Shown here: piece by piece, positions 1,435 to 19,882 of the stretch | Numbering within the stretch: the first letter of the stretch is position 1 | How the letters are laid out: every line of letters starts with the position of its first letter | Translations under genes and position numbers: made by a program | The notes under the pieces: model-generated | Seen by the model: only the letters and a program-made list of their open reading frames with translations | The model's database searches: none | Told to the model about the DNA's origin: nothing | Assembly: GCA_043799545.1 (NCBI GenBank) | Contig: JAZDNO010000015.1 | Span: forward strand, 1-19,882 | Length of the DNA stretch: 19,882 nt | Direction of reading: 5' to 3' | DNA from: Methanobacteriota archaeon | GTDB taxonomy: Archaea > Thermoplasmatota > Thermoplasmata > SG8-5 > DAIRED01

Positions 1435-2001
1435 TCAAGGCACGAACACCGCAGCTGCCACCGTCGTCGTCCAGCAGCCCTTCTTATCGCCTATGGCGCT
1501 CTGCGTTATATTCGCGGTCTTCACGATGCGCCCGTCTATCTTGAATATCTCCTTCTTCGCGTCGTAGTGCTCGTCGAGGTCGAACTCTATCCCGTAGGTC
1601 GAGGACAGCATCTGAGCCGCCAGGTCTTCCGCGTAGTCGCCGTTCGCCTTCTCGGTCAGCCCGAACGAGTGGTGCTCGCTGAGGTAGCCATAGTGCTTCT
1701 CGTCAGCCGGAATCGCAATTCCTATAGAGGCGGCGACGAGGCGGTTCGGCTCGTTCGATGCGTTGTCGGCCATAACGCAGAATACGACCTGGCCAGCGTT
1801 CAACATGGACAGCCCCTTCTTGCGGGGAATAAGCTTGCACCCCGGGGGGTAGATACTCGACACCCGCACGAGGTTGAACCTCTCGATTCCTGCATCGCGC
1901 AGCGCCATCTCGAAGCTGCTGAGCTTCTCCTTGTGCCTTCCCGTTCCTTTGGTCAAGAAAACGTGCCGTGGCACGTTCCCATTTTCTATGTTCTGTTCCA
2001 T
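1435..2001 (-). CDS. pdaD: Pyruvoyl-dependent arginine decarboxylase
   Basis: SSFEMALRDAGIERFNLVRVSSI (self-cleavage Ser-Ser), YGYLSEHH, C-terminal WTTTVAAAVF. Tandem TGA TGA stops. Confidence 0.92.
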   Translation of the reverse strand: MEQNIENGNVPRHVFLTKGTGRHKEKLSSFEMALRDAGIERFNLVRVSSIYPPGCKLIPRKKGLSMLNAGQVVFCVMADNASNEPNRLVAASIGIAIPADEKHYGYLSEHHSFGLTEKANGDYAEDLAAQMLSSTYGIEFDLDEHYDAKKEIFKIDGRIVKTANITQSAIGDKKGCWTTTVAAAVFVP

Positions 2002-2487
2002 TCAAACACCTCTCTCTTCTTTTGAAGTATTGCCCTTTAATTTGGATCCCAGCCAGCCGATGCTAGTGGCCGCCCTGTCGTCGAATTGCGGAACGTACGG
2101 CTTGATGTCCAAGAGGGGCGTCCCGTCCAACACGTCCAGGCCCTCTACGTCCAGAACGTTGCCCTTGCGCGAAACAAGTTTGACCGTCGAGAGTCCGATT
2201 CGATTTGGCCTCTGAGGAGACCTCGTGGCGAAAACACCGCGCGGCACGTCGTCCAAGAAAGGTTTGACCATGAGGGGCTCGTCCTTGCTCAGATGGAAGC
2301 GGTAGAGAATAGTGATGTGGGAGAAGCCATCTAAGTTACTCAGACCGTCAGCGTACCTCTCGAACACGATAATCCTCCCCTTAATCTTTGAGAAACAAGC
2401 TTGTATTGGGACATCTTCAGGCCTTTTGAGAGGAGACTCTATCGTTCCTATGCTGTAAACCTCGAATGCTGCTTCCTCATTTACCAT
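2002..2487 (-). CDS. tsaA: TrmO/TsaA (YaeB/AF0241)-family SAM-binding protein, short form
   Basis: IGTIESP, GFSHITILYRFH, RGVFATRSPQRPNRIGLS, LDVLDGTPLLDIKPY. Confidence 0.9.
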   Translation of the reverse strand: MVNEEAAFEVYSIGTIESPLKRPEDVPIQACFSKIKGRIIVFERYADGLSNLDGFSHITILYRFHLSKDEPLMVKPFLDDVPRGVFATRSPQRPNRIGLSTVKLVSRKGNVLDVEGLDVLDGTPLLDIKPYVPQFDDRAATSIGWLGSKLKGNTSKEERGV

Positions 2488-2902
2488 CCAGGAACCTCCA
2501 TCCGCGCCTTTTCGCGCAGTCGGCTATTGCGCATCTCAGCGCTGTGATGCAAAGGGTCGCGCAGTGCTCGTGCCCTTCCGGCAGGCCGCCCAGCGCGCTG
2601 ACGATTGCCTCGGGGCGCAGGTTGAAGGCGTCCATGATAGTCTTCCCCTCGGCCAGACGGGTCGTGGCGCTGCCGCACGCGAGCGTCACTGCACACCCAT
2701 TCGCTTGAAAGCAGACCTTACTGATTGCGTGGCCATCCGCTTTGACATAGAACGTCATAGTGTCGCCGCACGGCCCCGTGAAAATGGATTTGCCGTCGGC
2801 GTCGTCCATCATTTCCATATTCCTGGGATTCGTCGCCTCCTCTATCAAGATACGAGATATCCCTCGGAAAGCGTGGCTATCTTCCAGCCTGTCAACGATC
2901 AT
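2477..2902 (-). CDS. iscU: IscU/NifU-N-type Fe-S scaffold
   Basis: NPRN, GPCGD, NGCAVTLACGS, LGGLPEGHEHCA; the three conserved Cys are present. Confidence 0.85.
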   Translation of the reverse strand: MIVDRLEDSHAFRGISRILIEEATNPRNMEMMDDADGKSIFTGPCGDTMTFYVKADGHAISKVCFQANGCAVTLACGSATTRLAEGKTIMDAFNLRPEAIVSALGGLPEGHEHCATLCITALRCAIADCAKRRGWRFLDGK

Positions 2903-3758
2903 TAAGCATCTCCTCGACGCGCTTCCAGGCAGTGGACAGCGCTTTGGCCAGCGTCGTTTCCGGGTACTCCGTGACCGGGCGTCCCTCGACTATTGCCCTG
3001 GTAGCTACGTCGTCGTATGGCAGTTCGCCGATGACCTCTATCCCTTCGGTGGCACAGTATTTCCTCACCGACATGACATTGTCCGCGTTCACGTCCGACT
3101 TGTTTATCAGCACGCTGGCTTGCACGTGGAAATGCCTCGCGACATCGACCATCCGCCTTCCGTCGTGGATGCTGGACAGCGTCGGCTCCACGACGACGAT
3201 GGCCATTTTCGTACCGCCAATCGCCGCTATGACGGGGCACCCAGTGCCCGGCGGCCCATCTATTATAATCGTGTCCCGGCCGCTCTCTCTTGCAAGCCGC
3301 CTGGCGTTCTCCCTCACGAGCGAGACGAGCATCCCGGACGCCTCCTGGCCCGGGTCGAGAAGCGCGTGTGACATCGGGCCGAAGCGCGTCTCGGAGACGT
3401 ACGCCTCGCCGACAACTCTGTCGCTCATCCATATGGCTCCGACTGGACAGACGATTGTGCAAACGGCGCATCCCTCGCACCTGTCCCTGTGAATTGCGAA
3501 CGATTTGTCGATGGCTCCGAACCTGCATGCTTCCAGGCACTTGCCGCAATTGACGCACTTTGAATCTTCCTTGATGGCCGCTTTCATACCGTAGAACTTG
3601 GTACGGCCCTTGATCGTCGGTTTAAGCACCATATAGAGGTCCGGGGCGTCGACGTCCGCGTCAGCGAAGACCGCTCCCTTCGCTAGGGCCGCGAACGCAG
3701 CCGCGACCGTCGTCTTGCCAGCTCCGCCCTTCCCGCTTACAATCACCAGCTCCTTCAA
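2892..3758 (-). CDS. MinD/CobQ-superfamily P-loop ATPase with inserted 2x[4Fe-4S] ferredoxin domain (copy 2)
   Basis: The true start is probably TTG at 3758 (MKELVIVSGKGGAGKTT), with a TTGA overlap onto the upstream stop. Motifs DADVDAPD, CVNCGKCLEAC, CEGCAVCTIVCP, DGPPGTGCPV. The ORF-track extension to 4292 is an out-of-frame overlap. Confidence 0.9.
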   Translation of the reverse strand: MKELVIVSGKGGAGKTTVAAAFAALAKGAVFADADVDAPDLYMVLKPTIKGRTKFYGMKAAIKEDSKCVNCGKCLEACRFGAIDKSFAIHRDRCEGCAVCTIVCPVGAIWMSDRVVGEAYVSETRFGPMSHALLDPGQEASGMLVSLVRENARRLARESGRDTIIIDGPPGTGCPVIAAIGGTKMAIVVVEPTLSSIHDGRRMVDVARHFHVQASVLINKSDVNADNVMSVRKYCATEGIEVIGELPYDDVATRAIVEGRPVTEYPETTLAKALSTAWKRVEEMLNDR

Positions 3759-4612
3759 AGTGCCCCCTCCCCAATAACAGCGAAAAGGAGGCTCTCGAAG
3801 ACCTTTGCGATTTCCGGCAGGTCGCCGACGAGCGTCTTCCCGTTCGAATACAGTGTGGCTATGCGCCTGTCGTTCGGTATCCTCGCAAGGATGGGAATCC
3901 CTTCCGTGGCGCAATACGCCTCGACCGAGCCGTCGCCCAGCCCGTCCCTGTTGATGACGACGCCGAACGGAATCTTCAACCCCCGCACGACCGCTATGGC
4001 AATTTTCAGATCCCCCAGGCCGAACGGCGTCTGCTCCGTGACGAGGATGCAGCGGTCGGCGCCGCGCAAGGTCTCGACGACGGGACACGAGGTACCTGGC
4101 GGAGCGTCCAGGATAGTCAAGCCGGTAGGGTCGGCCATCTTCTTCAACTCCCTGATTATCGGTACGCCTGTCGGCTGCCCGACGTCGAGCGTCCCCTGCA
4201 GAAGGGTCACGCCTTCCGACGCTCCTCGCTCGATCACCCCCAGGCGCTTGCCAGTTTCCACGATAGCACTTTTCGGGCACACCATCTTGCACCCGCCGCA
4301 GCCGTGGCAGAGGTCACCAAAGAACAGATGCTGTTTGCCCACCACGGCGATGGCGTGGAACCTGCAGAACTCCGCGCACTTGCCGCACCTGGTGCATTTG
4401 TCCATGTCGAAGACCGGTATCGGTTTGGTGACTTCGCGGACGGACTCCAGCTTGGCCTTCAGGAAGATGTTGCAGTTAGGCTCCTCGACGTCGCAGTCGA
4501 CGAGTGCGACCCCGCCCGAAGCTGACTTGGAGAGGCTGGCCGTCAGGGCGAGATTCACGGCGACGGTTGTTTTACCGGTCCCTCCCTTGCCGCTCGCAAT
4601 CACGATATTCAT
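3755..4612 (-). CDS. MinD/CobQ-superfamily P-loop ATPase with inserted 2x[4Fe-4S] ferredoxin domain (copy 1)
   Basis: SGKGGTGKTT, DCDVEEPN, CTRCGKCAEFC, CHGCGGCKMVCP, DAPPGTSCPV. Confidence 0.92.
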   Translation of the reverse strand: MNIVIASGKGGTGKTTVAVNLALTASLSKSASGGVALVDCDVEEPNCNIFLKAKLESVREVTKPIPVFDMDKCTRCGKCAEFCRFHAIAVVGKQHLFFGDLCHGCGGCKMVCPKSAIVETGKRLGVIERGASEGVTLLQGTLDVGQPTGVPIIRELKKMADPTGLTILDAPPGTSCPVVETLRGADRCILVTEQTPFGLGDLKIAIAVVRGLKIPFGVVINRDGLGDGSVEAYCATEGIPILARIPNDRRIATLYSNGKTLVGDLPEIAKVFESLLFAVIGEGAL

Positions 4613-4613
4613 T

Positions 4614-5402
4614 TCAGCTTCCCCTCCTGGCAGTGACTGCAGGCCTTCTCATCCGTGTCTGAAAAACGTCCATTGGCTCCACTCTCGGAGCTTTGCCAAC
4701 GCAATCGTAGACCATGCGCACGTTCAGCCCCTTGAACGGAAGCGACAGCTTCCTCATGACATCCATTCCCAGCGGCTTCGCCGCGCATGGCCGAAGCGGC
4801 GTGTTGAGATGCACTTCATCGGGCAGGATATCGTGTGCCAACCTAGCAATCTTTTCAGTATATCTCATGTTCTGCCCGATGAGCATCACGTCGAGGGCAA
4901 GGGATCCACTGTACATCTCCCGGAATCTCTTCAGGCCAACGACCATGGTCTCGAAATCAATCCCCTTTGCCGGGCGATTGATTTGCTTGAAATGCCCCTC
5001 GGAATCCGCATCGAGCTTGGCCACCACGATGTCGAAATCCAAAAGGCCTTCCCTGACCTCCACATCGGCCATCATGGAGGAGTTCGTCAGCAGGGCGGTA
5101 GGGGCCTTCAACATTCTCTTGATGGCTCTGTGCGCGTCGGGCAGGTTTCGTGCCAGAGTTGGCTCCCCGGTCCCCGAAAACGTCACGACATCGTACCGCA
5201 CGGAAGCGCCGAGCGCCTTTAATTCGGCCTCCATTTGGTCTAGATCGACGAAGTTGCCGCGCTCTGTGGTGTGAATGCCGGTTCTGCCCAGCTGGCAGTA
5301 CGTGCAATCGAAGGAGCAGCGCTTGTCCCTGCTGCACAACAGGTCGACTCCTAAAGATCTGCCAAGGCGCCAGGAAGGCACGGGGCCGTAGACGATGCTC
5401 AA
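4614..5402 (-). CDS. Radical SAM protein (COG0731-like, uncharacterised)
   Basis: YGPVPSWRLGRSLG N-terminus, CSFDCTYC (CxxxCxxC), TFSGTGEPTL, LLTNSS. TTG start with GGAGG upstream. Confidence 0.9.
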   Translation of the reverse strand: MSIVYGPVPSWRLGRSLGVDLLCSRDKRCSFDCTYCQLGRTGIHTTERGNFVDLDQMEAELKALGASVRYDVVTFSGTGEPTLARNLPDAHRAIKRMLKAPTALLTNSSMMADVEVREGLLDFDIVVAKLDADSEGHFKQINRPAKGIDFETMVVGLKRFREMYSGSLALDVMLIGQNMRYTEKIARLAHDILPDEVHLNTPLRPCAAKPLGMDVMRKLSLPFKGLNVRMVYDCVGKAPRVEPMDVFQTRMRRPAVTARRGS

Positions 5403-5444
5403 GATGGAGCCTCCGTTCCATCGCGCTTTACATCAAATCTGTAC

Positions 5445-6050
5445 TCAGCCGTTTTCATCCCCCTCTGCTGCCTCCTTCAATCTTTTTTGATAGTACCCTG
5501 AATAGATGGCTCCCAAAGGATTGTGGGCGAGAACCCTGTCCTTCACTGCAATGGTCGTGACGGGTGCGTTTGAGTGTTTCGTGAACAGGATGTCGTGCCC
5601 GATGCACAGCCCCAGGATGATGTTGAGGTCTGTTTGCGCGTCGTTGAGGACATGCGCCTGCCACATGGGATTGCAGATGGCCTCGACGCCATCTCTCTCG
5701 GGGTGAAGCTGCGTGACCTTGAACCGCGATTTATCCATTCCGCAGACCTTGCAGCACACCGAATGCGTTTCGAAGCCCTTCTCGAGGATGCCGTGCAGAA
5801 CCCGGGCCTCCTTCTCCAGCCCGATGCAGAAGGCGATCCCGAGGCGCTTGTGTCCCATGCGCCGGGCGAATATTATCAACTCCTCAATTCGAGTTTTTTT
5901 CATATAGTACTTCGCCTCGATCTCCGAAGATGTCCGCAATGTTTGAAGGTCGATGCCAGTGTACACCTTGGCGGCATCCTCACCGCTTCCGGTGCAGTCC
6001 TTTCCTTTGTAGCAGTCCTTATGATCACACAAAGCGCACTTCATAGTCAT
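5445..6050 (-). CDS. DUF1847 Cys-rich metal-binding protein
   Basis: TRIEELI.FA..MG.KRLGIAFCIGL, SVCCKVCG, ICNP..QA..LN, LGLCIGHD, VKDRVLAHNP. ATG 6044 is an alternative start. Confidence 0.88.
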   Translation of the reverse strand: MTMKCALCDHKDCYKGKDCTGSGEDAAKVYTGIDLQTLRTSSEIEAKYYMKKTRIEELIIFARRMGHKRLGIAFCIGLEKEARVLHGILEKGFETHSVCCKVCGMDKSRFKVTQLHPERDGVEAICNPMWQAHVLNDAQTDLNIILGLCIGHDILFTKHSNAPVTTIAVKDRVLAHNPLGAIYSGYYQKRLKEAAEGDENG

Positions 6051-6100
6051 CAGTCATCCTCACAGCATATGCGACAGCCATCCTGCGATACGCAGAGCCA

Positions 6101-7447
6101 TCACCTCATGTTCTTCAGCGCGAGTTCTGCAGCGTTGACCAGCTGGTAGGCGATCGGGGAAGCGGTCACCGCAGGGTGAGTTCCTATCTGGAACGTTGCG
6201 ATGTCATCAGCTGTCATCTTGTTCTGTATGCATGCGCTGATTGTGTTGATTAATTCGCCAGCGCTCGGCCCGCCTCTTACGGCACCGCCCACCAGCTCGC
6301 CGTTCGCCTTGTTGAATACGAGCTTCACCCACATCTTTGACATGCCAGGCATCCCTCCCGGGTGTCTGTCTGGAGCCTCCGCTTCGCCGGCGACCACCTC
6401 GAAGCCGCAGCTCCGGGCGCCTTTCTCGCTCATGCCAGCCATGGCGACTGTGAGCCCTCCCAGCGCAGTGGAAAACACCCCGACGACCCCCGGATTCTTC
6501 CGGCGGGTGTTGTACAAGTTGGCTCCAGCGATTCGCGCCTCCGTCGTGGCAATCGATGCGAGCCTGAGCCCCGACGGCTGCCCCGTGAAGAACGAGAACT
6601 TGGTGGCGCAGTCGCCGCACGCGAAGATGCTCGGGTCCGACGTGCGCATGTTCGTGTCGACGACTATGCCGCCCTTGTCGACAGCGAGCCCCGCGTTTTT
6701 GGCCAGCTCGACGTTCGGCGTCACGCCTATCCCCACGATAAGGACATCTGCCTTGATTTCACGCCCGTCTCCGAGCTTGACGCCGGTGACCGCATCCTTC
6801 CCGAGGACTTCGACCAGCTTCGCGCCAGTGATGACGTTTATCCCCTTGGAAGAGAGGTCTTGCTCGACCTCCTGGCAGCACTTGCACACTTCCTCGCCGA
6901 ATGCGATTTGCAGGCAATGGTTAAGCATCTCGATGACGGTCACGTTCACGTTGCGGCCCTTCTTGCACTCGTCCGCCAGTTCGACGCCGATGAACCCGCA
7001 TCCGAGGATGACGACGTCCTTCGCCCCATCCACGGCCGACATGACGCCGCGCAGGTAATCCACATCCTTCTGGATGCAGAAGACGTTCTTCTTGTCGATC
7101 CCGGGTATCGCCGGAACGAGCGGCTTCGAGCCAGTGGCTAGGACTAGCCTGTCGTACGCCACGACCTCGCCGCTATCGAGGGTCACCGTCTTCTTCGACG
7201 GGTCGAGGGTCTTCGCCCCATCGACTGCGAGCTCTATCCCAGCCCCCGTCACCGCCGCGTCTGGTATCAGGTTGTTCTCCGGCTTCCCCACGGTCCCGAA
7301 GATGTAAGGGATGCCGCATGGTATCAGCACCTGTTTCTCCTTCCTCACTACCATGACGCTCTTGTCTGGGTAGTGCCTGCGCGCCGTCATCGCTGCGGGT
7401 ACACCCGCAGCGCTTCCGCCTATGACAACAATGTCAGCGTTCTTCAT
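6101..7447 (-). CDS. FAD-dependent pyridine nucleotide-disulfide oxidoreductase (NADH oxidase/CoA-disulfide or persulfide reductase family)
   Basis: VVIGGSAAG, redox Cys in IPCGIPY, LVLATGS, ILGCGFIGVE, TSDPSIFACGDC, C-terminal dimerisation domain. AGGAGGG is spaced correctly for ATG 7447. Confidence 0.92.
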   Translation of the reverse strand: MKNADIVVIGGSAAGVPAAMTARRHYPDKSVMVVRKEKQVLIPCGIPYIFGTVGKPENNLIPDAAVTGAGIELAVDGAKTLDPSKKTVTLDSGEVVAYDRLVLATGSKPLVPAIPGIDKKNVFCIQKDVDYLRGVMSAVDGAKDVVILGCGFIGVELADECKKGRNVNVTVIEMLNHCLQIAFGEEVCKCCQEVEQDLSSKGINVITGAKLVEVLGKDAVTGVKLGDGREIKADVLIVGIGVTPNVELAKNAGLAVDKGGIVVDTNMRTSDPSIFACGDCATKFSFFTGQPSGLRLASIATTEARIAGANLYNTRRKNPGVVGVFSTALGGLTVAMAGMSEKGARSCGFEVVAGEAEAPDRHPGGMPGMSKMWVKLVFNKANGELVGGAVRGGPSAGELINTISACIQNKMTADDIATFQIGTHPAVTASPIAYQLVNAAELALKNMR

Positions 7448-7485
7448 TTTCATCCCTCCTTTTCACTTTCACCCAGCGGTCCCCT

Positions 7486-7845
7486 TCAATGCTGGTGCTC
7501 CTTGCAGGCGTTCTCATCAGTCGCGACCTGCAATTTTTTAGCCTTCCAAAGTTCGATAGTATTTCTAACTGTCCCTTGAGCGCCGACATAAACTTCTATA
7601 CCATAGCCCTCAAACATGGTTATCGCCCGCGGGCCCAGTCCGGAACAGAGCAGCACATTCACGCCTTCCTTTGCAAGGTGCTCCGGCGGTTTACCGACGC
7701 CGCCCATGTGCTCGCTGGTGTTCCGAACGACGCGGACCTTGTTGGTCTCCGTGTCCACCAGCGTGTACGTCGGGACGCGCCCGAAGTGATCCCCTACCTG
7801 CTCGTCCAGTCCCTTGTCTCCATTTGTGGGTACTCCAATTATCAT
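7486..7845 (-). CDS. NifB/NifX-family (FeMo-co-binding fold) protein 1
   Basis: GLDEQVGDHFGRVPTY, CSGLGPRA, C-terminal ACKEHQH. Confidence 0.9.
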   Translation of the reverse strand: MIIGVPTNGDKGLDEQVGDHFGRVPTYTLVDTETNKVRVVRNTSEHMGGVGKPPEHLAKEGVNVLLCSGLGPRAITMFEGYGIEVYVGAQGTVRNTIELWKAKKLQVATDENACKEHQH

Positions 7846-7858
7846 ATTATCCCTCCAT

Positions 7859-8209
7859 TCACATTGATGTCGCGTTTCTACTAATTTTTACGGTTTCGGT
7901 GCTGGTGCAGCGCTCCACCGCCTCGCGGACGGAGCCCTTCGCCCCGGTGACTATCTTCACGCCCGAGCCTTCTAGCATCTTCATCGCGTGCGGGCCGACC
8001 TCGCCGGTCAGTATCGCGTCGGGCTTGAGGTCCAGCGCACCCTGCGCGGCCGCGACCCCCGCGCCGCCAGTGGCCTTCGTACCTGGATTCTCTACAGATG
8101 TCGCTGCCATCGTCGAGCTATCGACCACGACGAAAAACGGGCACCTCCCGAACCTTCCGTCCACTTCTGCATCGAGTCCCCTGTCCTTTGCCGTAACCAA
8201 TATTTTCAT
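7859..8209 (-). CDS. NifB/NifX-family protein 2
   Basis: GLDAEVDGRFGRCPFF, NPGTKATGGAGVAAAQ, LTGEVGPHA. Confidence 0.9.
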   Translation of the reverse strand: MKILVTAKDRGLDAEVDGRFGRCPFFVVVDSSTMAATSVENPGTKATGGAGVAAAQGALDLKPDAILTGEVGPHAMKMLEGSGVKIVTGAKGSVREAVERCTSTETVKISRNATSM

Positions 8210-8252
8210 TTCGCCTCACCTCTCGCTTCTAGTGCGCTCCAGCCCCATCATC

Positions 8253-8414
8253 TCAGGGCTCCTCGTCACGGGCCATCGTGTGCCCGCACTTCGGGCATTC
8301 CTGCCTTAAACATGGCACCCCCCGCTTGTGAGGCTGCCTGTGCCCGCACTCGGGACAGACGCACTCGCCGCCGGGGCCCTTCCCCTTGCCAATCTCTTCA
8401 ATCTTTCTTGCCAT
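8253..8414 (-). CDS. 53-aa double Cys-knuckle (putative Zn/Fe-binding) microprotein
   Basis: [53 protein letters not shown]. It overlaps the end of mrp. ATG 8426 is an alternative start; the ORF-track start at 8537 is unlikely. Confidence 0.75.
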
Positions 8415-9240
8415 TTCCGCCACCATCTTTATTGAACGCAACCACTCCATCGACGATTCCAGAAAACGCTTTGACGGTCGAAGGGCAGTTCGTCTTCCTC
8501 GTAACGAACGGCACACCGTCGTCGCCGCAATCGACAATCGACGGCTCTATCGGTAAACGACCTAGGAACGGCACGCCCATCTGCTTTGCCGCGGCCTCGC
8601 CCCCGCCGACCTTGAACAGGGCGATGCCCTTGCCGCAATGAGGGCAGGTCAATCCGGCCATGTTCTCGACGATGCCCATTACGGGCATCCCGAGTTGTCT
8701 GGCGAACGTTACGGTCTTCCGCGCATCGAGAAGGGCGACCTCCTGGGGCGTCGTAACGATAATTGCCCCCGCGCCGGGCACCTGCTGGGCGATGCTCAGA
8801 GGCTCGTCGCCGGTTCCAGGCGGCAGGTCGACGATTAGGTAGTCGAGTTTTCCCCACTCGACATCGCCGAGGAACTGGTTGATGATGCTCATCTTCATCG
8901 GACCTCGCCATATGACCGCGGCGTCCTCGCTGTCGAGCACGAACGCCATCGACATCACTTTCAGTCCTGGCCTGACTTCGATTGGCTGCATCCCGCCCTC
9001 TCCCTGGGTGACCTTGGAGCGCCCGACCCCCAGCATCTTCGGCACGTTCGGGCCGTGGATGTCGGCGTCGAGCAGGCCGACCTTGAACTTTTTTGCAGCC
9101 AGGGCGAACGCCAGGTTCGTCGCTACAGTCGTTTTACCGACGCCGCCCTTGCCGCTCATCACGACCACCTTGTGGCCGATGTTATCCAGGTTTTTCTTGA
9201 TTTTTCGTTGGGTTTCGACCGCATCAGCATTGCCGTGCAA
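8398..9240 (-). CDS. mrp: Mrp/NBP35 (ApbC) Fe-S cluster carrier ATPase
   Basis: [54 protein letters not shown] start with GAGGAG upstream. Confidence 0.95.
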
Positions 9241-9266
9241 AGTATTCGCTCTCCTCGAAGGCCTGA

Positions 9267-9629
9267 CTACTTGTCTTCTTTCTGCAGTTCTTTGAGCCGG
9301 TCTTTGACCCCGTTGAGGTCGTTCTCTAGCGCCTTCACGGCGTCTTCCAAGTATGCCTTCTCTTCCTCCTTGGTCGGACCCCTGTAAGGTACATATGGCT
9401 CGTCGTAGACGTGCATCGGCTGCGCTGGTCCGAACCGCCTTGGCCCGAAGCCCATGCCGAAACCACGGCCCCTTCCGAAGCCGCGTCCCATGCCGAAACC
9501 CATCCCTCGGCCCCTGCCTCGGGCGGGCCCGCTAGCATATCCTGGCGCCGGGTATCCGGCGCAGTATCCTCGATTCCTACCTGTCATCGGGCCCTCTCCG
9601 TCGGGACCCGTTCTATCTCCTCTTGGCAT
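9267..9629 (-). CDS. DUF5320-family Gly/Arg-rich protein
   Basis: [32 protein letters not shown] repeats, C-terminal coiled coil ([18 protein letters not shown]). Confidence 0.9.
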
Positions 9630-9678
9630 TGTAATTTCCCTCCTATTTCTTCTTCGATTTCTTTTACCACTTCATTTT

Positions 9679-9801
9679 TCATGGGTGGCATATTTTACAC
9701 TCATGAATTTTATGGGATGTACCATCCTTGTGTAAGCAACTGTCTCCCACATGTTTATGATCCTTACACTCAGGATTCGTGCATTTTTGTTCTATAGCCA
9801 T
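9679..9801 (-). CDS. Unannotated 40-aa Cys/His-rich microprotein (metallothionein-like or Zn-finger-like)
   Basis: Manual translation gives MAIEQKCTNPECKDHKHVGDSCLHKDGTSHKIHECKICHP, with 5 Cys and 6 His. GAGGTGA lies 7 nt upstream of the ATG. It is co-oriented and fills the gap between DUF134 and DUF5320. Confidence 0.72.
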   Translation of the reverse strand: MAIEQKCTNPECKDHKHVGDSCLHKDGTSHKIHECKICHP

Positions 9802-9844
9802 GTCGGTTTCACCTCTATTTTTCTCTCAATTAAACGAAACCGCA

Positions 9845-9976
9845 TCAGCAGCTTCCCTTTTTTCCACCTTTCTTCTTTCCTATTCCTACACCAGAAGAGC
9901 TTCCCTTACCTTGTCCTCTTCCGTCTCTTGCTCCTTTTGAGCTATCCCTTGGTCCTTTTCCATCTTTCTTTGGCAT
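9845..9976 (-). CDS. Possible independently initiated 43-aa DUF5320-like peptide, in frame within the DUF134 ORF
   Basis: MPKKDGKGPRDSSKGARDGRGQGKG...KKGSC. It has its own GGGGAGTGA SD and the same ACAATGCCA start context as the genes at 9629 and 10747. Confidence 0.45.
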   Translation of the reverse strand: MPKKDGKGPRDSSKGARDGRGQGKGSSSGVGIGKKKGGKKGSC

Positions 9977-10315
9977 TGTTATTTCACTCCCCTTTTCTTT
10001 TACTTCTGTCTGGCTGACGCGGTAGTCTAGGCCCACGATCTCGAGCGCGCATCCGTTCACAAGTGCGTGAATTACTTTCTTTCTGGCGCTCTCCAGGTCG
10101 TTCCAGAAGCTGCGGCGCGATATGCCCATCTTGACCGCGGCCTCCTCCTGGGTGAGCCCTTCAAGGTCCACCAGCCTCAGCGCCTCGAGTTCCACGAAGC
10201 TCAATTCTATGACTTCCATGAACCTCATCGGGACTCCAGCAGGCTTGTAGTAGGTGACCTCGGGAACGTTTTCTATCCATCTCGGGGACCTGTGTCTTCC
10301 GCGTCTGCATTCCAT
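9845..10315 (-). CDS. DUF134 (UPF0251) predicted HTH DNA-binding protein with a C-terminal Gly/Lys-rich extension
   Basis: YYKPAGVP, ELEALRLVDLEGLTQEEAAVKMGISRRSFWNDLESARKKVIHALVNG. Start placed at ATG 10315 because a TATA box (TTTAAATA) lies ~25 nt upstream; ATG 10327 is an alternative. Confidence 0.88.
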   Translation of the reverse strand: MECRRGRHRSPRWIENVPEVTYYKPAGVPMRFMEVIELSFVELEALRLVDLEGLTQEEAAVKMGISRRSFWNDLESARKKVIHALVNGCALEIVGLDYRVSQTEVKEKGSEITMPKKDGKGPRDSSKGARDGRGQGKGSSSGVGIGKKKGGKKGSC

Positions 10316-10323
10316 AATTCTAC

Positions 10324-10393
10324 ACATATGAGAGAAAGTATTTAAACTTATTGCCGATTTGAGCAATAAATCTATGCAATCCGAATTTTGCAT
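10324..10393 (-). promoter_or_regulatory. DUF134 operon promoter: TATA box plus two adjacent palindromes
   Basis: TTTAAATA on the minus strand (10338-10345); TTATTGC-N8-GCAATAA (10348-10369); ATGCAA-N8-TTGCAT (10374-10393). Confidence 0.7.
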
Positions 10394-10444: not shown

Positions 10445-10747
10445 TTACTTCATTTTCTCGATTTCCTCTTGGACTTCTTTTGCCCCTTCGGCATAAAACT
10501 TTTCCTCATCGGGGGCCAGCTCGCGGAGCAATCTCAGAAATTCTCCAGCATGCACGCGCTCCTCGTCCGCTATGTCCTTGAGCACTTCCACGGCGAGCTT
10601 GTTGTCAGTTGACTCGGCAAGCTGCATGTACATCTGAATCGCCTCGTACTCTGCAGCCACCATGAAACGAATGGCTCTGACGAGCTCCTCAACCGTGAGC
10701 TTCCGAGCGTTTTTCAACCCTGAAAAGGGCGTTCCGAACTCTGGCAT
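10445..10747 (-). CDS. Ferritin-like protein of the EncFtn/Flp (rubrerythrin-like half-ferritin) type
   Basis: ELVRAIRFMVAAEYEAIQMY, LKDIADEERVHAGEFLRLL (ferroxidase E..E / ExxH). GGAGGT SD. Confidence 0.85.
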   Translation of the reverse strand: MPEFGTPFSGLKNARKLTVEELVRAIRFMVAAEYEAIQMYMQLAESTDNKLAVEVLKDIADEERVHAGEFLRLLRELAPDEEKFYAEGAKEVQEEIEKMK

Positions 10748-10778
10748 TGTTGGTTACCTCCTTTTCTTTCTTTTCAAT

Positions 10779-10848
10779 ACATATGAGAATAAATATTAAA
10801 ATTATTGCATGGTTGAGCAAGAAAGAGTCGCAACTCGGACTTTTCGAC
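10779..10848 (-). promoter_or_regulatory. Ferritin gene promoter, a homologous copy of the DUF134 promoter
   Basis: ACATATGAGA..., TTTTAATA-type TATA on the minus strand, TTATTGC-N8-GCAAGAA (10802-10823), GTCGCAA-N8-TTTCGAC (10827-10848). Confidence 0.68.
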
Positions 10849-15633: not shown

Positions 15634-15685
15634 TCTTAATAAGAATCATTAAATATTTAATAGGATATGAGATTCACAATGAATC
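15634..15685 (+). promoter_or_regulatory. znuA promoter with palindromes (candidate operator of the NikR-like regulator)
   Basis: 14-bp perfect palindrome ATTAAATATTTAAT (15648-15661) over the TATA box; TCTTA-A-TAAGA (15634-15644); GATTCA-CAA-TGAATC (15671-15685) over the likely start codon. Confidence 0.5.
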
Positions 15686-16572
15686 GCAAGCAACTGGCGC
15701 TCGTCGTGGCAAGCACTGCCGTCGCGTGCGCGCTCGTCGCCGCCGCGCTATTCACCGGCGGTTTGACTTCAAGCGATGAGCGGTTAAAGGTCGTTGCCAG
15801 CTTCTACCCGCTTGCCTATTTTGCCGAAGAAATCGGGGGTGAAAAAGCGAAGGTCGACGTTCTGATACCGGAGAATGCCGAACCCCACGCGTGGGAGCCT
15901 AGCACGTCCGACATCCTGAAGGTGGACAAGGCGGACGTCTTCATATATAACGGCGGTGGCTTCGAGCCTTGGATCGGGAATTTCCTGGATTCCGCGCACA
16001 ACGGCGCGCTGACCGTCGTCGATACTAGCGCAGGCATCGCCATCTCCGGCGACCCACACTTCTGGCTGGACCCGCTGTCGGCTAAGCTGCAAGTCGACAA
16101 TATTTTGGCTGGATTTTCATCGGCCGACCCGGGCAACGCTGGACTCTACGAGGCCAACGCCCAGGCTTTGAAGGGCCGACTCGACAAGCTGAACCAGGAC
16201 TACGTGGATGGCCTCGCCGGACGCTTGAAAAATGACATCGTAACCACCCACGAGGGCTTCGACTACATGGCCAACAGGTACGGTTTCAACGCCCATGCGG
16301 CGATAGGCATATCGGCCGACGAACAGCCATCGGTCCAGGCAATTGCGGACCTGGTGGACATCGTCCACGGCCTGGGCATCCACTACGTCTTCGTCGAGCC
16401 CGTCTACTCCGACCAGTACATGGAGACCATCGCCGCCGAAACGGGGGCGCAAACCCTCGTGCTCGACGGCATCCACGGCAGGACTGGCGTCCACTCCGGG
16501 ATGGACTATTTCGAGATAATGTACGCGAATCTGGAGCAGCTCAGGATTGGCCTTGAGGCGCCAGGAGTTTGA
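15679..16572 (+). CDS. znuA: Metal ABC transporter substrate-binding protein (cluster A-I, ZnuA/TroA-like)
   Basis: N-terminal TM anchor, VVASFYPL, EPHAWEP, DPHFWLDP, THEGFDY, EQPS. ATG 15667 is an alternative start. Zn specificity is inferred. Confidence 0.9.
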   Translation: MNRKQLALVVASTAVACALVAAALFTGGLTSSDERLKVVASFYPLAYFAEEIGGEKAKVDVLIPENAEPHAWEPSTSDILKVDKADVFIYNGGGFEPWIGNFLDSAHNGALTVVDTSAGIAISGDPHFWLDPLSAKLQVDNILAGFSSADPGNAGLYEANAQALKGRLDKLNQDYVDGLAGRLKNDIVTTHEGFDYMANRYGFNAHAAIGISADEQPSVQAIADLVDIVHGLGIHYVFVEPVYSDQYMETIAAETGAQTLVLDGIHGRTGVHSGMDYFEIMYANLEQLRIGLEAPGV

Positions 16573-16578
16573 TGTCAA

Positions 16579-17379
16579 ATGGAAAACGGGGCGGTTGAAG
16601 GCGGCAGGGTGCCAGTCTTGGAGGTCGAGGACCTCAACATATCCCGGGAAAAAGAGGTAGTTGTGAAGAATGCAAGCTTCAAGATTTTCAGGGGCGAGTA
16701 TGTAGGCATCATCGGCCCGAACGGCGGGGGCAAGACCACGCTCCTTCTCGGAATCCTCGGCACGCTGAAGCCGGACCGCGGTATCGTGAAGATTTTCGGC
16801 ACGGATTCGCGCTCGTTCGACCAGTGGGAAAAAGTTGCTTACGTTTCACAGAACGCCGTCAACTTCGACTCCAGCTTCCCCATGACCGTCAGGGAGATGG
16901 TCTCGCTCGGGCGCGTGGGGCGTCGCAACCTCGGCAGGAAGCTCTCCGAAGAGGACTGGAAGTCCGTCGATGAGCACCTGGAATTGCTCGGATTGGGAGA
17001 GATGGCCGGCAAAAGGGTTGGCGAACTCTCAGGCGGGCAGAAGCAGCGGGTCTTCGTCGCCAAAGCCCTCGTCAGGGGCCCTGAGCTGCTGCTGCTGGAC
17101 GAACCGATTGCGGGCGTCGACCCGACCGCCCAGGAGGCGTTTTACAAGAAGCTGAGCGACCTCAACACCGAGCGCGGGCTGACGATAATCATCGTCTCGC
17201 ACGACCTGACGGCGGTCTTCTGCCGGATGTCCAAAGTAATCTGCGTAAGCGGGGAGGTCAACGTTTCGGAAATCGCCGAGGGGTTCGAGCCGACCGAGCT
17301 GCTGCGCAAGGCGTACGGGGAGCACTTCCACTTTGTTTATCACAGGCACTCTTGCGAGGGGGAATTCCGTGGCGCTTGA
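16579..17379 (+). CDS. znuC: Metal ABC transporter ATPase
   Basis: GPNGGGKTT, LSGGQKQR, LLLDEP, VSHD, C-terminal HFHFVYHRH. Confidence 0.92.
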   Translation: MENGAVEGGRVPVLEVEDLNISREKEVVVKNASFKIFRGEYVGIIGPNGGGKTTLLLGILGTLKPDRGIVKIFGTDSRSFDQWEKVAYVSQNAVNFDSSFPMTVREMVSLGRVGRRNLGRKLSEEDWKSVDEHLELLGLGEMAGKRVGELSGGQKQRVFVAKALVRGPELLLLDEPIAGVDPTAQEAFYKKLSDLNTERGLTIIIVSHDLTAVFCRMSKVICVSGEVNVSEIAEGFEPTELLRKAYGEHFHFVYHRHSCEGEFRGA

Positions 17380-18187
17380 TGCGGCCTGGCTTGGCCTTTT
17401 CGGGTACGATTTCTTCCAGAGGGCGCTCCTTGGCGGAACGTTGGCGGCCGCGGCGTGCGCCTGGGTCGGGCTCTTCCTCATCCTGCGGAGGGAATCGATG
17501 CTCGGCGACGGGGTAGCTCACACGGCCTTCGGGGGAATCGCCCTCGGGCTGCTGCTGGGGATTTCGCCGCTCCTGGCGGCCCTAGTTGTGTCGATAGCAT
17601 CGGCCCTCGGCATCGCTTATATGAGGAAGAAGGGCATCGCCAACTCCGACTCGGCCATCGCGGTCATAATGGCCATGGGCTTTGCCATCGGTCTGATAAT
17701 CATCTCGCTGGCCGGCGGGTTCAACGTCGAGATAATGAGCTACCTCTTCGGCTCGATTCTGACAATAAACATGGAGGACTTGGCCATAGTCACGGCCCTC
17801 GCGGTCGTGGTGTTGGTGTTCCTCGGGACATTCTACAAGGAGCTGATGTCCATGACCTTCGACGAGGAGGCGGCGAGGATGTCCGGCATTCCGGTCGGCG
17901 CCATGTCGATCGCCTTCAATATCCTCATCGCGACGACGATAGTCGTTTCGATAAAGGTCATAGGAATCATCCTCGTCACCGCGTTGATGATAGTCCCGGG
18001 GCTGACGGCGCTGCAGTTAAGACTTTCGTTCAGGCGCACGGTCACCGCCACCATCGGGTTCGGGACGCTGGCCACGGTGCTCGGGCTCGCCTTGTCGGCC
18101 ATCTATGCCGTCGCCGCGAGCGGGGTGGTGGTGTTCACCGCGGTCGCCATGCTCGCTTTCGTCGTAGCCTACAGGAGGCTCGGTTAA
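17369..18187 (+). CDS. znuB: Metal ABC transporter permease (ABC-3 family)
   Basis: FFQRAL, GDGVAHTAFGG, YLFGSIL, FDEEAAR, IKVIGIILV. The likely start is GTG 17369 after GAGGGGG. Confidence 0.92.
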   Translation: MALDAAWLGLFGYDFFQRALLGGTLAAAACAWVGLFLILRRESMLGDGVAHTAFGGIALGLLLGISPLLAALVVSIASALGIAYMRKKGIANSDSAIAVIMAMGFAIGLIIISLAGGFNVEIMSYLFGSILTINMEDLAIVTALAVVVLVFLGTFYKELMSMTFDEEAARMSGIPVGAMSIAFNILIATTIVVSIKVIGIILVTALMIVPGLTALQLRLSFRRTVTATIGFGTLATVLGLALSAIYAVAASGVVVFTAVAMLAFVVAYRRLG

Positions 18188-18188
18188 G

Positions 18189-18590
18189 ATGGCCCGCGAC
18201 GCGGCAAAGGTCGTCTCCTTGAGCCTGCCAGACAGCATACTGGGCGACATAGACCGGGCCGTAGCCGATATAGGTTATCCCAGCCGCTCCGAGCTCGTCC
18301 GGGACGCCGTGCGCTCCTTCCTGCGGGAGAGGTCCGAAGTGGCGGCTCTCTCGGGGCACATCAACGGCATCCTGATACTCATTTACGACCATGGCTGCGC
18401 CGCGCGCGTCTCGGAGGTCAGGCACCGCCACATGGGCGTTTTCAAATCATTCATGCATGCCGACTTCGACGAAGGCGAAGACTGCTGCGAAGTTCTGATG
18501 TTCTGCGGGGAAGCGGCCAAGGTGAAAGAATCGTACGACCAGCTCAAGACCATCGTCGGCGTGAAGGAGACGCGGCTCTTCCTGGCGTGA
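18189..18590 (+). CDS. NikR-family (RHH plus ACT-like) metalloregulator with variant metal site
   Basis: VSLSLP..IL..ID, SRSELVRDAVR, then a C-terminal domain RH..........HAD.....CCEV. Confidence 0.85.
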   Translation: MARDAAKVVSLSLPDSILGDIDRAVADIGYPSRSELVRDAVRSFLRERSEVAALSGHINGILILIYDHGCAARVSEVRHRHMGVFKSFMHADFDEGEDCCEVLMFCGEAAKVKESYDQLKTIVGVKETRLFLA

Positions 18591-18633
18591 GCCGCCTGTT
18601 TCCCCTTTGTGTCGCATTACAACTTGGAAGAAG

Positions 18634-18999
18634 TCAATGGCAGCTATGGCCTGCGCAGGCCATGTCCGGTTTGAGCTCGACGAGCTTACCGGCCTTGTAG
18701 TTGGCCACCGCAGAGCTGATGGTTTCACCATCCAAAAGGTAAACCTTGATGCCGGCTTGGTTGAACATGTCGACAGCCCTGCGACCCATGCCGCCGGTTA
18801 TAACTGCGCCGGCCCCCTCACCGGCGATGGCGGCTACCGGTTGGCAGGCGCCGTGCTCGTGCTGCTCGTGGTTGTTCTGAACCATCTTCAGCTTGCCCGA
18901 TTCTACATCGTAAAATGCGAAATAGGGGGCGCTCCCGAAATGAAAGTAGACTTTAGATTCCAGACCCTTGCTCTCCATCGTCGGCATGCAGATTTTCAT
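18634..18999 (-). CDS. NifB/NifX-family protein 3
   Basis: GLESKVYFHFGSAPYF, HEQHEHGACQP, TGGMGRRA, C-terminal ACAGHSCH. GGAGTGA SD. Confidence 0.9.
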   Translation of the reverse strand: MKICMPTMESKGLESKVYFHFGSAPYFAFYDVESGKLKMVQNNHEQHEHGACQPVAAIAGEGAGAVITGGMGRRAVDMFNQAGIKVYLLDGETISSAVANYKAGKLVELKPDMACAGHSCH

Positions 19000-19052
19000 A
19001 TTATCACTCCAAACATGTAGGCTGTGGGCTTAATTTTCACCACAACATACAG

Positions 19053-19075
19053 TTAGGTGAACCCTTAATAAAACA
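19053..19075 (-). promoter_or_regulatory. Degenerate DtxR-type box plus TATA upstream of nifX-like gene 3
   Basis: The minus strand reads TTTTATTAAGGGTTCACCTAA, against TTTATTTTAGGGACACCTAA at the dtxR promoter. Confidence 0.45.
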
Positions 19076-19097
19076 GTATGTTATCTAACTTCCGTTA

Positions 19098-19433
19098 CTA
19101 TATTTTTATTTCCCTGCCAACACCGACTCTACAATCTCCCCTCGCAATCTCCTTCGCCTTCTGTTTCCCCATCTCCGTGAAGACGTACACACCGACCTCG
19201 AGCATCTGCCTCTGGACCTCGTCTGTTATCCACTCACGGTCGTGCTCCGCGACCTCCTTGTTCAGCTCCGCAGCGATGTCGTCAATCAGAGGATCCAGGA
19301 AGTCGTAGAGCTTCGACTTGTGCCTCGTCAAGATGGCCACTGCGTGCCTGCGCAGCCTATCGTTGGCGTATACCTGCACAGCGAAGAACGAGACGATTGC
19401 GACCAGCAGCGCGAAATGCTCCAGGGACATCAT
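19098..19433 (-). CDS. Hypothetical protein with an N-terminal TM helix (flank, virus/MGE-like)
   Basis: 111 aa, AGGTGA SD, hydrophobic HFALLVAIVSFFAVQVY, high GC3 except for the last 13 codons. Confidence 0.65.
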   Translation of the reverse strand: MMSLEHFALLVAIVSFFAVQVYANDRLRRHAVAILTRHKSKLYDFLDPLIDDIAAELNKEVAEHDREWITDEVQRQMLEVGVYVFTEMGKQKAKEIARGDCRVGVGREIKI

Positions 19434-19443
19434 TTTATCACCT

Positions 19444-19462
19444 TGAAATTAAAGAAAAAGGG
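19444..19462 (-). terminator. Possible archaeal oligo-T terminator tract
   Basis: The minus strand reads CCCTTTTTCTTTAATTTC shortly after the stop of 19477..19878. Confidence 0.3.
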
Positions 19463-19476
19463 TTTTGTGGAGGTCT

Positions 19477-19878
19477 TCAGTCGTCGATCTCGGGTTCCGG
19501 GGGCCACATGAACGGGTACACCTCGTGGTACCTCGTCATGTCCACCACGAAGATGCGCGCCTCGTGGCCGAGCGCCTCGATGTCGACCATCGCCTGGTTG
19601 ACCTGGGGCCATTGCTGGTTCCCGGGCGTCACCGGCTCGGCGATGTCCATTATCTCTTCGACGTCGGTCTGCAGCGCCGTCAGCGCCGCGCGGACGTTCT
19701 GGACCCTGGCGCGTATCTGCGCCTTGAGCTGGGCGTCCAGCCCGTCGCAGAGCTCCAGGATCTCCGTGCACTTGTTCCTCGCGGTCCCTATCTGGGTCGT
19801 GGCGTCCACCGATATCGGCTCCAGCACGTCCGGGGTTTCTCCCGGCGCGCTATTCACTTGGGTTGTTCTGTGAACCAT
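19477..19878 (-). CDS. Hypothetical acidic/helical protein (flank, possibly 5' partial)
   Basis: 133 aa, high GC3, heptad-like central segment (LDAQLKAQIRARVQNVRAALTALQTDVEEI). The start is 4 nt from the window edge. Confidence 0.6.
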   Translation of the reverse strand: MVHRTTQVNSAPGETPDVLEPISVDATTQIGTARNKCTEILELCDGLDAQLKAQIRARVQNVRAALTALQTDVEEIMDIAEPVTPGNQQWPQVNQAMVDIEALGHEARIFVVDMTRYHEVYPFMWPPEPEIDD

Positions 19879-19882
19879 TTTG

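Follow-up and report, generated by a model that had tools for sequence, protein, structure and literature searches.

A probable orange-protein system, enlarged and split into separate genes, in an operon of a Thermoplasmatota archaeon

The best-described systems resembling the locus reported here are the orange-protein (ORP) clusters of Desulfovibrio. In D. vulgaris Hildenborough the set comprises Orp3, Orp4, Orp5 (a small [2Fe-2S] protein), Orp8 and Orp9/MrpORP (PMC6345978, PMC8359166). Two of these, the paralogous ATPases Orp3 and Orp4, each have two [4Fe-4S] ferredoxin motifs and were co-purified with Orp8. MrpORP, in which an Mrp/Nbp35 P-loop domain is fused to a Di-Nase (NifX-like) domain, binds a [4Fe-4S] cluster through its CXXC motif and passes the cluster on to both of these ATPases; the fusion itself arose several times (PMC6345978). 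A wider neighbourhood, with a ParA protein carrying a ferredoxin insert, NifX, NifU, a helix-turn-helix (HTH) protein, a Gly-rich protein, a radical SAM protein, a metallo-beta-lactamase (MBL) and an ARMT1-like protein, has been proposed to serve metal-cofactor biogenesis (bioRxiv 10.64898/2026.10.19.760177, an October 2026 preprint). Here we analyse a 19,882-bp stretch of DNA, henceforth the window, which is the whole of one contig in the 2.06-Mb, 94%-complete genome of an uncultured anaerobic archaeon; its closest DUF1847 relatives are found in Thermoplasmatota metagenome-assembled genomes, at up to 78% identity. Fifteen genes on its minus strand had been taken, in a prediction made from the sequence (henceforth the original prediction), for an uncharacterised pathway of metallocluster assembly and delivery. 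We find that the core of this putative operon appears to be an ORP cluster, accompanied by recurrent accessory genes and, at its distal end, by two apparent passengers.

The best solved relative of gene 6 is the orange protein of D. gigas (2WFB, 8e-18, followed by MTH1175) and, as in ORP, the NifX fold (IPR003731/PF02579) stands in it as a single domain. Gene 4, which has both the deviant Walker A (GKGGVGKT) and the CXXC (CPHC) motifs of Mrp, found its best NCBIfam model in MrpORP (NF041136), with 369 bits over model positions 1–251 of 365 and below the 450-bit cut-off. It thus lacks the fusion that defines MrpORP, and the second (Di-Nase) domain is instead matched by the separate genes 6 and 7, the latter aligning with the C-terminal domain of the same model (positions 273–358, 1e-11) and having 1t3v, 1o13 and 2yx6 as relatives in the PDB (about 1e-14 to 1e-12). 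Both NifX-like proteins are tail-less, at 116 and 119 aa. The two paralogous ATPases with ferredoxin motifs that characterise ORP sets are present as well, 45–47% identical to a tandem pair in Desulfovibrionaceae (46–47% for gene 11 and its homologue). The Desulfovibrionaceae locus reads, on one strand, DtxR-FeoB-x-IscU-Mrp-NifX-NifX-ATPaseA-ATPaseB; its Mrp and two ATPases are 45–48% identical to those of the window, each ATPase being nearest to its own counterpart. Because gene 6 is nearest to 2WFB, gene 4 is nearest to MrpORP, genes 6 and 7 match the second domain of MrpORP and the Desulfovibrionaceae locus is so similar, we assign the operon core to the ORP clusters on sequence grounds. 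With the 2WFB and MrpORP matches and the published descriptions (PMC6345978, bioRxiv 10.64898/2026.10.19.760177), "uncharacterised" no longer suits it. The Desulfovibrio fusion seems to be split into separate genes here, a form compatible with an ORP system, since the fusion arose repeatedly and fused and unfused proteins are intermixed in the tree (PMC6345978).

An alignment of 29 A and B ATPases showed an invariant deviant Walker A motif, eight invariant ferredoxin cysteines and two further invariant cysteines, C176 (in DxPPGTxC) and C234. NifH has a cluster ligand at the same D-x6-C spacing, in switch II. The genome as a whole holds four PF02579 matches, in open frames of 118–133 aa.

Compared with the Desulfovibrio ORP systems, the locus shares the two paralogous ferredoxin-motif ATPases, the single-domain NifX-fold protein, the MrpORP-type Mrp/Nbp35 ATPase and an anaerobic host. 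It differs in having one co-directional operon in place of two divergent ones, in keeping the Mrp and NifX-like domains as separate genes, and in its control, which in Desulfovibrio involves sigma54, OrpR and IHF and here, apparently, an archaeal DUF134 HTH protein and a single TATA-box promoter with a flanking operator. Added to the set are DUF5320, a zinc-ribbon-like protein, a flavoprotein resembling CoA-disulfide reductase (CoADR), DUF1847, radical SAM, an IscU paralogue and a Cys/His peptide. No homologue of Orp5 was recognised, with no Orp5 reference sequence to compare; the small Cys-rich proteins of the operon are those of genes 2 and 5.

Features of the operon, its promoter and the ferritin-like neighbour. 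Positions are those of the window. The last column gives occurrences among the 45 related loci that hold both ATPases (lower bounds).
Feature	Position	Strand	Evidence and remarks	Loci of 45
Operon promoter/operator	10316..10366	-	sequence read: O1, TATA box, O2	
O1 upstream site TTGCTCAAATCGGCAA	10348-10366	-	5' of TATA box, DUF134 promoter	
TATA box TTTAAATA	10339-10346	-	23 nt to ATG at 10315	
O2 downstream site TCTCATATGT	10324-10333	-	3' of TATA box	
Gene 1, DUF134 helix-turn-helix	9845..10315	-	Pfam DUF134 3e-23, Sigma70_r4_2 1e-6	22
Gene 2, 40-aa peptide	9679..9801	-	5 Cys + 6 His; no family match	
Gene 3, DUF5320	9267..9629	-	Pfam 7e-25; disordered cationic Gly/aromatic-rich N-terminal half, then acidic helix	12
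Gene 4, Mrp/Nbp35-type Fe-S carrier ATPase	8398..9240	-	Pfam ParA/NUBPL 3e-99	24
Gene 5, small six-Cys zinc-ribbon-like protein	8253..8426	-	weak zinc-ribbon matches below cut-off	15
Gene 6, NifX-like a, orange-protein type (Orp8-like)	7859..8209	-	Pfam Nitro_FeMo-Co 2e-17	35
Gene 7, NifX-like b, TM/PH0822 type	7486..7845	-	Pfam 2e-20	36
Gene 8, CoA-disulfide-reductase/NADH-oxidase family flavoprotein	6101..7453	-	Pfam Pyr_redox_2 3e-57 + dimerisation domain	11
Gene 9, DUF1847	5445..6050	-	Pfam 9e-55; Cys-rich, flavodoxin-like core	
Gene 10, small radical SAM protein	4614..5402	-	Pfam Radical_SAM 2e-15; CX3CX2C at residues 29-36; TTG start	15
Gene 11, MinD/ParA-type ATPase A (Orp3/Orp4-like)	3755..4612	-	Pfam CbiA, ParA, Fer4; inserted 2x[4Fe-4S] ferredoxin domain	
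Gene 12, paralogous ATPase B	2892..3758	-	Pfam CbiA/ParA + Fer4; same ferredoxin insert; TTG start	45 (directly downstream of A)
Gene 13, divergent IscU/NifU_N-type scaffold paralogue	2477..2902	-	Pfam NifU_N 1e-22	15
Gene 14, TrmO/TsaA family	2002..2487	-	Pfam TrmO_N 2e-39; NCBIfam TrmO 127 bits, above cut-off	5
Gene 15, pyruvoyl-dependent arginine decarboxylase PdaD	1435..2001	-	Pfam PvlArgDC 2e-62; NCBIfam 209 bits, above cut-off	1
Ferritin-like (EncFtn/EncB-family) gene	10445-10747	-	NCBIfam EncB_fam 95.8 bits, above cut-off	
Second O1-TATA-O2 promoter copy, before ferritin-like gene	10779-10820 (region 10445..10848)	-	sequence read	

The 15 open reading frames (ORFs) lie head to tail from 10315 down to 1435, all on the minus strand as predicted, and each of the predicted labels agreed with Pfam or NCBIfam except that the Cys/His peptide belongs to no family and the Cys-rich protein of gene 5 gave weak zinc-ribbon matches only. 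In gene order the gaps measure 43, 49, 26, -29, 43, 13, 32, 50, 42, 1, -4, -11, -11 and 0 nt, so that the description as mostly under 50 nt with several overlaps is accurate (range -29 to +50 nt). "Largely translationally coupled" is somewhat generous, as six of the 14 junctions overlap or abut; apart from the Mrp/zinc-ribbon junction these six are all in the distal half and take in the last six genes, among which the TTG start of ATPase B overlaps the stop codon of ATPase A (TTGA). Among the 15 genes a TATA box precedes gene 1 only, GGAGG-like Shine-Dalgarno sites stand 5–10 nt upstream of all 14 later genes, and no run of five or more T that might act as an oligo-T terminator was found in any intergenic gap. 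Since the TATA box is alone, the later genes have Shine-Dalgarno sites and the gaps are free of T-runs, genes 1–15 show the pattern expected of a single transcription unit, in keeping with the parts list and the single operon originally predicted.

The proteins of the window were compared by tblastn with 77 loci anchored on DUF1847 and 20 loci anchored on the ATPases (in genomes of the same class), the loci coming from Thermoplasmatota, Hadarchaeota, Methanosarcinales/ANME, Micrarchaeota, Aquificales, Syntrophomonadaceae and Desulfovibrionaceae. Both ATPases are held by 45 of them, and the per-gene counts are lower bounds, many loci being cut by contig ends. Dozens of loci, spread over several archaeal and bacterial phyla, repeat this gene set and its order, so the arrangement is far from chance; random co-occurrence, which had been named as grounds for abandoning the prediction, was not what we saw. 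Three tiers can be told apart: a conserved core made up of both ATPases, both NifX-like proteins, Mrp and DUF134; a recurrent accessory tier of the IscU paralogue, radical SAM, zinc-ribbon protein, DUF5320, CoADR-like flavoprotein and DUF1847; and the apparent passengers TrmO and PdaD. DUF134 is the first cluster gene in 22 of the 45 loci, and in 28 of the 77 loci anchored on DUF1847 that gene is the immediate successor of either the ATPase pair or IscU. Class-wide, the ATPases occur in 28 of 41 genomes, nearly always as a tandem pair, and DUF1847 in 6. The sister genome (G004) reproduces the order over three contigs taken together, with DUF134-peptide-DUF5320-Mrp on one, flavoprotein-DUF1847 on another and radical SAM-A-B-IscU-TrmO-PdaD, then DtxR-FeoB, on the third.

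Some genes that recur elsewhere have no copy here, namely an MBL (after DUF1847 in 22 loci), an extra ferredoxin, an ARMT1-like protein, HTH_10 and an aminotransferase. The locus had been called unusually complete, which is true in part only, as the MBL, ARMT1-like and extra ferredoxin genes are missing. With the neighbourhood of bioRxiv 10.64898/2026.10.19.760177 it has in common the HTH protein, radical SAM, NifU and a Gly-rich protein whose C-terminal helix is charged; MBL and the ARMT1-like protein are found in that neighbourhood only, whereas the CoADR-like flavoprotein, DUF1847, TrmO, PdaD and a short radical SAM protein are found here. Five ORP-type clusters, in Methanococcoides and relatives, are adjoined by an MBL-rhodanese fusion, a possible sign of a tie to persulfide or sulfur chemistry.

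The 23 nt between the TATA box and the ATG of DUF134 imply a leaderless archaeal transcript. The O1 and O2 motifs that flank this box have two occurrences each in the 2.06-Mb genome, in the promoters of DUF134 and of the ferritin-like gene and nowhere else, and at least ten related loci keep the O1-TATA-O2 layout ahead of DUF134, while more distant lineages carry another palindrome at the same position. Because these motifs are confined to the two promoters and their layout upstream of DUF134 is conserved, DUF134 is likely to repress its own operon and, in this genome, the ferritin-like gene as well. The specificity is confined to the full O1 and O2 motifs, unlike the idealised palindrome TGCTCATATGAGCA, which with up to three mismatches gave 40 genome matches against about 60 expected in 2 Mb (24–33 per Mb in shuffled sequence) and was not informative. 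An encapsulin shell gene (PF04454) that could partner the ferritin-like gene was not found in the genome. The DUF134 protein itself has a basic Gly/Lys-rich C-terminal tail fused in frame. The counterpart of this tail in the sister genome (L107:1020–1464) lies in a different frame, and in more distant relatives the corresponding sequence forms the N-terminus of the next gene, DUF5320.

Among the accessory genes, gene 13 is a divergent paralogue of IscU rather than a housekeeping scaffold, because it scores 80 bits where the IscU on contig C10 scores 160. The IscU found lineage-wide, in most relatives, mostly reaches 157–177 bits, and paralogues of the gene 13 kind adjoin ORP-type clusters in several relatives. 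The translation contains GPCGD, GC and HC stretches, which we take to be where IscU holds its cluster ligands. Together with the deviant Walker A and CXXC motifs of gene 4, these stretches recall the housekeeping Mrp/ApbC/Nbp35 and IscU proteins (ISC/MIS); the difference is that the genome keeps its housekeeping IscU on another contig, gene 13 being a paralogue with a low score. An IscU-like paralogue in three related genomes, all from the same genus (G007:C48, G010:C30 and G014:C424), has one in-frame TAG within the NifU_N match, which may be a read-through or pyrrolysine-type codon or may mark a pseudogene.

The radical SAM protein of gene 10 is short (262 aa, against about 300–320 aa in other loci) and gave weak NCBIfam matches only, and an Atlas search with it returned generic radical SAM clusters only. 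Its relatives in 15 of the 45 loci are 30–38% identical, and the sister genome has a 62% identical orthologue. The zinc-ribbon gene overlaps the end of gene 4, with an uncertain start (8426 or 8450), and its relatives, at 43–64% identity, occupy the same position in their loci. The best NCBIfam models of the flavoprotein are CoADR, at 237 and 234 bits and below cut-off; it keeps the N-terminal Cys of the family (PCGIPY), and orthologues 63–73% identical stand inside the cluster in relatives of the order. Across 30 DUF1847 sequences nine cysteines are invariant and one nearly so, as are H152, D153 and H176 (invariant). Its AlphaFold2 model is confident (mean pLDDT 89), yet Foldseek returned nothing at E ≤ 0.001 and VIA-align gave generic flavodoxin, CheY and periplasmic-binding-lobe matches only (Z ≤ 8.2). 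The Cys/His peptide of gene 2 is 88% identical at the same position in the sister genome, more than its neighbours are, with five of five cysteines kept and six synonymous against five non-synonymous codon changes; it was not found in four other genomes of the order.

The reading that we favour, at a probability of roughly 60%, is that of an archaeal (Thermoplasmatota), enlarged, split-gene ORP system, a DUF134-regulated operon that would assemble, hold and pass on iron-sulfur (Fe-S) or related metal-sulfide clusters as part of iron homeostasis. The IscU paralogue and Mrp would build and carry [4Fe-4S] clusters, with iron from the nearby Feo system. A heterodimer of ATPases A and B, with eight ferredoxin cysteines and two further invariant cysteines per subunit, could spend ATP on moving electrons or clusters to the two NifX-like proteins, where a labile cluster would be bound non-covalently. 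DUF5320, whose cationic half resembles the tail of IssA, might stabilise anionic Fe-S material; the CoADR-like flavoprotein may supply reducing power or sulfide, or remove oxygen; DUF1847 and radical SAM would be accessory Fe-S proteins. DUF134, finally, would bind O1 and O2 on either side of the TATA box, both in its own promoter and ahead of the ferritin-like gene. We infer those steps that go beyond the Desulfovibrio biochemistry.

The link to iron is drawn from the promoter shared with the ferritin-like gene, from the operator layout kept in relatives and from DtxR/FeoB, which adjoin the cluster not only in the window but in seven related loci, and in several other lineages. Besides the operon and the ferritin-like gene the contig carries DtxR-FeoA, FeoB, a CGGC protein, a transporter of the ZnuABC type, a regulator resembling NikR and a third NifX-like gene.

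Several points weigh against the reading of an enlarged ORP system in iron homeostasis. The Desulfovibrio authors favour a link to cell division. Gene 4 is without the fused second domain and falls under the MrpORP cut-off. The RG-rich DUF5320 could bind nucleic acid instead. We infer the binding of DUF134 to the operator from position and conservation, and the ferritin-like neighbour with its promoter copy was observed in this genome only. Co-transcription of 1435–10315, too, is a prediction from the sequence pattern.

Another explanation is the biosynthesis of a new complex cofactor, in the manner of NifB/NifX/NifH or the H-cluster maturases, for a client enzyme encoded elsewhere. The original prediction had drawn a parallel to the FeMo-co and H-cluster maturases, and a metal-cluster role with no client in view agrees with our findings. 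Radical SAM, NifX-fold carriers and a SIMIBI-class ATPase with Fe-S clusters are elements held in common with the NifB/NifX/NifH/NifEN set, and the recurrence of radical SAM in 15 of the 45 loci, the binding of complex clusters by the NifX fold, the ten conserved cysteines of DUF1847 in a protein with no known fold match, and the ATPase cysteine seven residues after the Walker B Asp (DxPPGTxC), a spacing at which NifH has a cluster ligand, all favour such a role. However, the NifD/K/E/N family (PF00148) had no match in the 94%-complete genome in searches that detected their positive controls, and a FeMo-co-like pathway was rejected on that ground. NifH, moreover, has no ferredoxin insert of the kind seen in the ATPases, and gene 10 has a Radical_SAM match over residues 28–189 only, without the NifX domain fused to it in NifB. 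The absence of a client, already claimed from the sequence, is in line with the neighbourhoods, where no enzyme recurs beside the cluster and the extras are MBL, ferredoxin, HTH, ARMT1 and aminotransferase genes. Limited profiling, which with neighbourhood analysis had been proposed as the way to a co-occurring client, brought none to light either: Prismane (HCP/CODH) was found in 15 of 28 ATPase-positive and 7 of 13 ATPase-negative genomes, which are interrelated, with no specific signal, and AOR in 24 of 28 and 8 of 13, nothing beyond shared ancestry. Radical SAM and DUF1847 are each missing from most loci (DUF1847 is in 6 of 41 class genomes, the ATPase pair in 28), and we consider a new cofactor pathway improbable.

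Doubtful, too, is an iron-sulfide store or buffer of the IssA kind, in which the NifX-like proteins and DUF5320 would sequester polymeric, thioferrate-like Fe-S, the ATPases and flavoprotein would load or mobilise it, and a regulator would be common to the operon and the ferritin-like protein. IssA of Pyrococcus furiosus has a NifX-fold domain (IPR003731) and a 70-residue thioferrate-binding tail with 15 Gly, 7 cationic, 14 aromatic and 11 Pro residues, 1 Cys and a pI of 10.7 (PMC5524996). MTH1175, the second-best solved relative of gene 6, is the IssA homologue used to model the IssA domain (PMC5524996), and residues 1–75 of DUF5320 match the described tail in composition (23 Gly, 12 Arg/Lys, 9 aromatic, 9 Pro, 1 Cys, pI 11.5), being likewise a cationic, Gly/aromatic-rich, single-Cys disordered segment. 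The promoter common to the operon and the ferritin-like gene and the recurrent Feo/DtxR adjacency point the same way. Yet the likeness to IssA is one of composition only, the tail being part of the same protein in IssA and here a separate DUF5320 with an acidic helix; DUF5320 is in just 12 of the 45 loci, and the ferritin link is specific to this genome. A related idea that we hold to be equally unlikely concerns iron-sulfide buffering and supply for strict anaerobes: DUF5320 as a detached IssA-like tail and the NifX-like proteins would hold polymeric or labile Fe-S material, the ATPase heterodimer would load or mobilise it, and DUF134 would act as a repressor that responds to iron or sulfide and in this genome also controls a ferritin-like protein.

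Very unlikely is the explanation first put forward for Desulfovibrio, a MinD-like system for positioning or cell division. The ATPases are of the MinD/ParA class, and in Desulfovibrio inactivation of OrpR leads to morphological defects and MrpORP localises to the poles, according to published work; the conserved partners, however, are all metal or Fe-S proteins, the 45 neighbourhoods show no recurrent division genes, and the genes around the ATPases here are of the Feo, ferritin-like, IscU and Znu kinds. A role in handling or detoxifying heterometal thiometallates (Mo/W-Cu), suggested by the closeness of gene 6 to the D. gigas orange protein, whose native cluster is of this kind, and by the published formation of S2MoS2-M-S2MoS2 clusters within ORP, is highly improbable given that neither Mo/W or Cu transporters nor pterin genes are recurrent neighbours of the cluster and the nearby transport genes are for Fe and Zn-type metals.

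What remains, with the ORP reading preferred, is a system for metal-cluster handling with no visible client that is already known in kind and is not a new pathway. SufB/D (PF01458) had no match in any of 22 genomes of the host order, this genome included and eight of them at least 90% complete, and was present in all 14 control genomes and, elsewhere in the class, in 9 of 19 genomes. A high-scoring IscU is retained by most members of the order, three genomes without the ATPase pair among them. Because the order includes genomes without the ATPases and mostly keeps a high-scoring IscU, the housekeeping Fe-S route is probably IscS/IscU. SUF is not replaced by the ORP-type cluster alone; the idea that the cluster substitutes for it was rejected on the three genomes without the ATPase pair, which are 91–93% complete, and on the retention of high-scoring IscU in most genomes.

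The original prediction had counted all 15 genes as pathway members, which the related loci do not support for the last two. TrmO is the sole copy in the genome and lies near the cluster in 5 of the 45 loci, on the same strand in 3 of those, and PdaD is linked to it only in the sister genome. As TrmO is sporadic and the linkage of PdaD recurs only in the sister genome, TrmO is probably a passenger on the transcript and PdaD appears to be one. A second pyruvoyl arginine decarboxylase, 82% identical to that of the operon, is encoded on contig C10 (19527–20063).

Elsewhere in the window, positions 15667–18999 hold a ZnuA-ZnuC-ZnuB-type metal ABC transporter followed by the NikR-like ribbon-helix-helix regulator, to which the third NifX-like gene (18634–18999) is convergent. 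A second DtxR-FeoB pair, 58–59% identical to that of the window, is found on contig C1 (124433–127489), with the fourth NifX-like gene directly after it. In the sister genome the DtxR-FeoB pair after PdaD is 59% identical to that of the window, and the region has accordingly been rearranged between the two genomes. The contig ends (1–1428 on the plus strand, and 19000–19882) carry ORFs of high GC content (65% over the first kb), oriented towards the metal island. Of five such ORFs tested, three had no Pfam family, one was CarboxypepD_reg-like just below cut-off and one gave a weak match below cut-off.

ORP-type clusters occur widely among anaerobes, both bacterial and archaeal, and the locus leaves this category unchanged while adding testable handles to it. 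These are a compact operator, present twice in the genome, that ties the operon to a ferritin-like gene; a division into core, accessory and passenger tiers; and, in DUF1847, a protein with a confident model and no informative fold match. The Fe-S supply of the host order, in which SufB/D was not found, appears to rest on IscU-type scaffolds. Taken together, the operator shared with the ferritin-like gene, the gene tiers, DUF1847 and the order without SufB/D point towards a role in iron and sulfide homeostasis rather than in cell division. If the buffering and supply reading were true, the cluster would be a second route of Fe-S supply beside IscS/IscU in this order.

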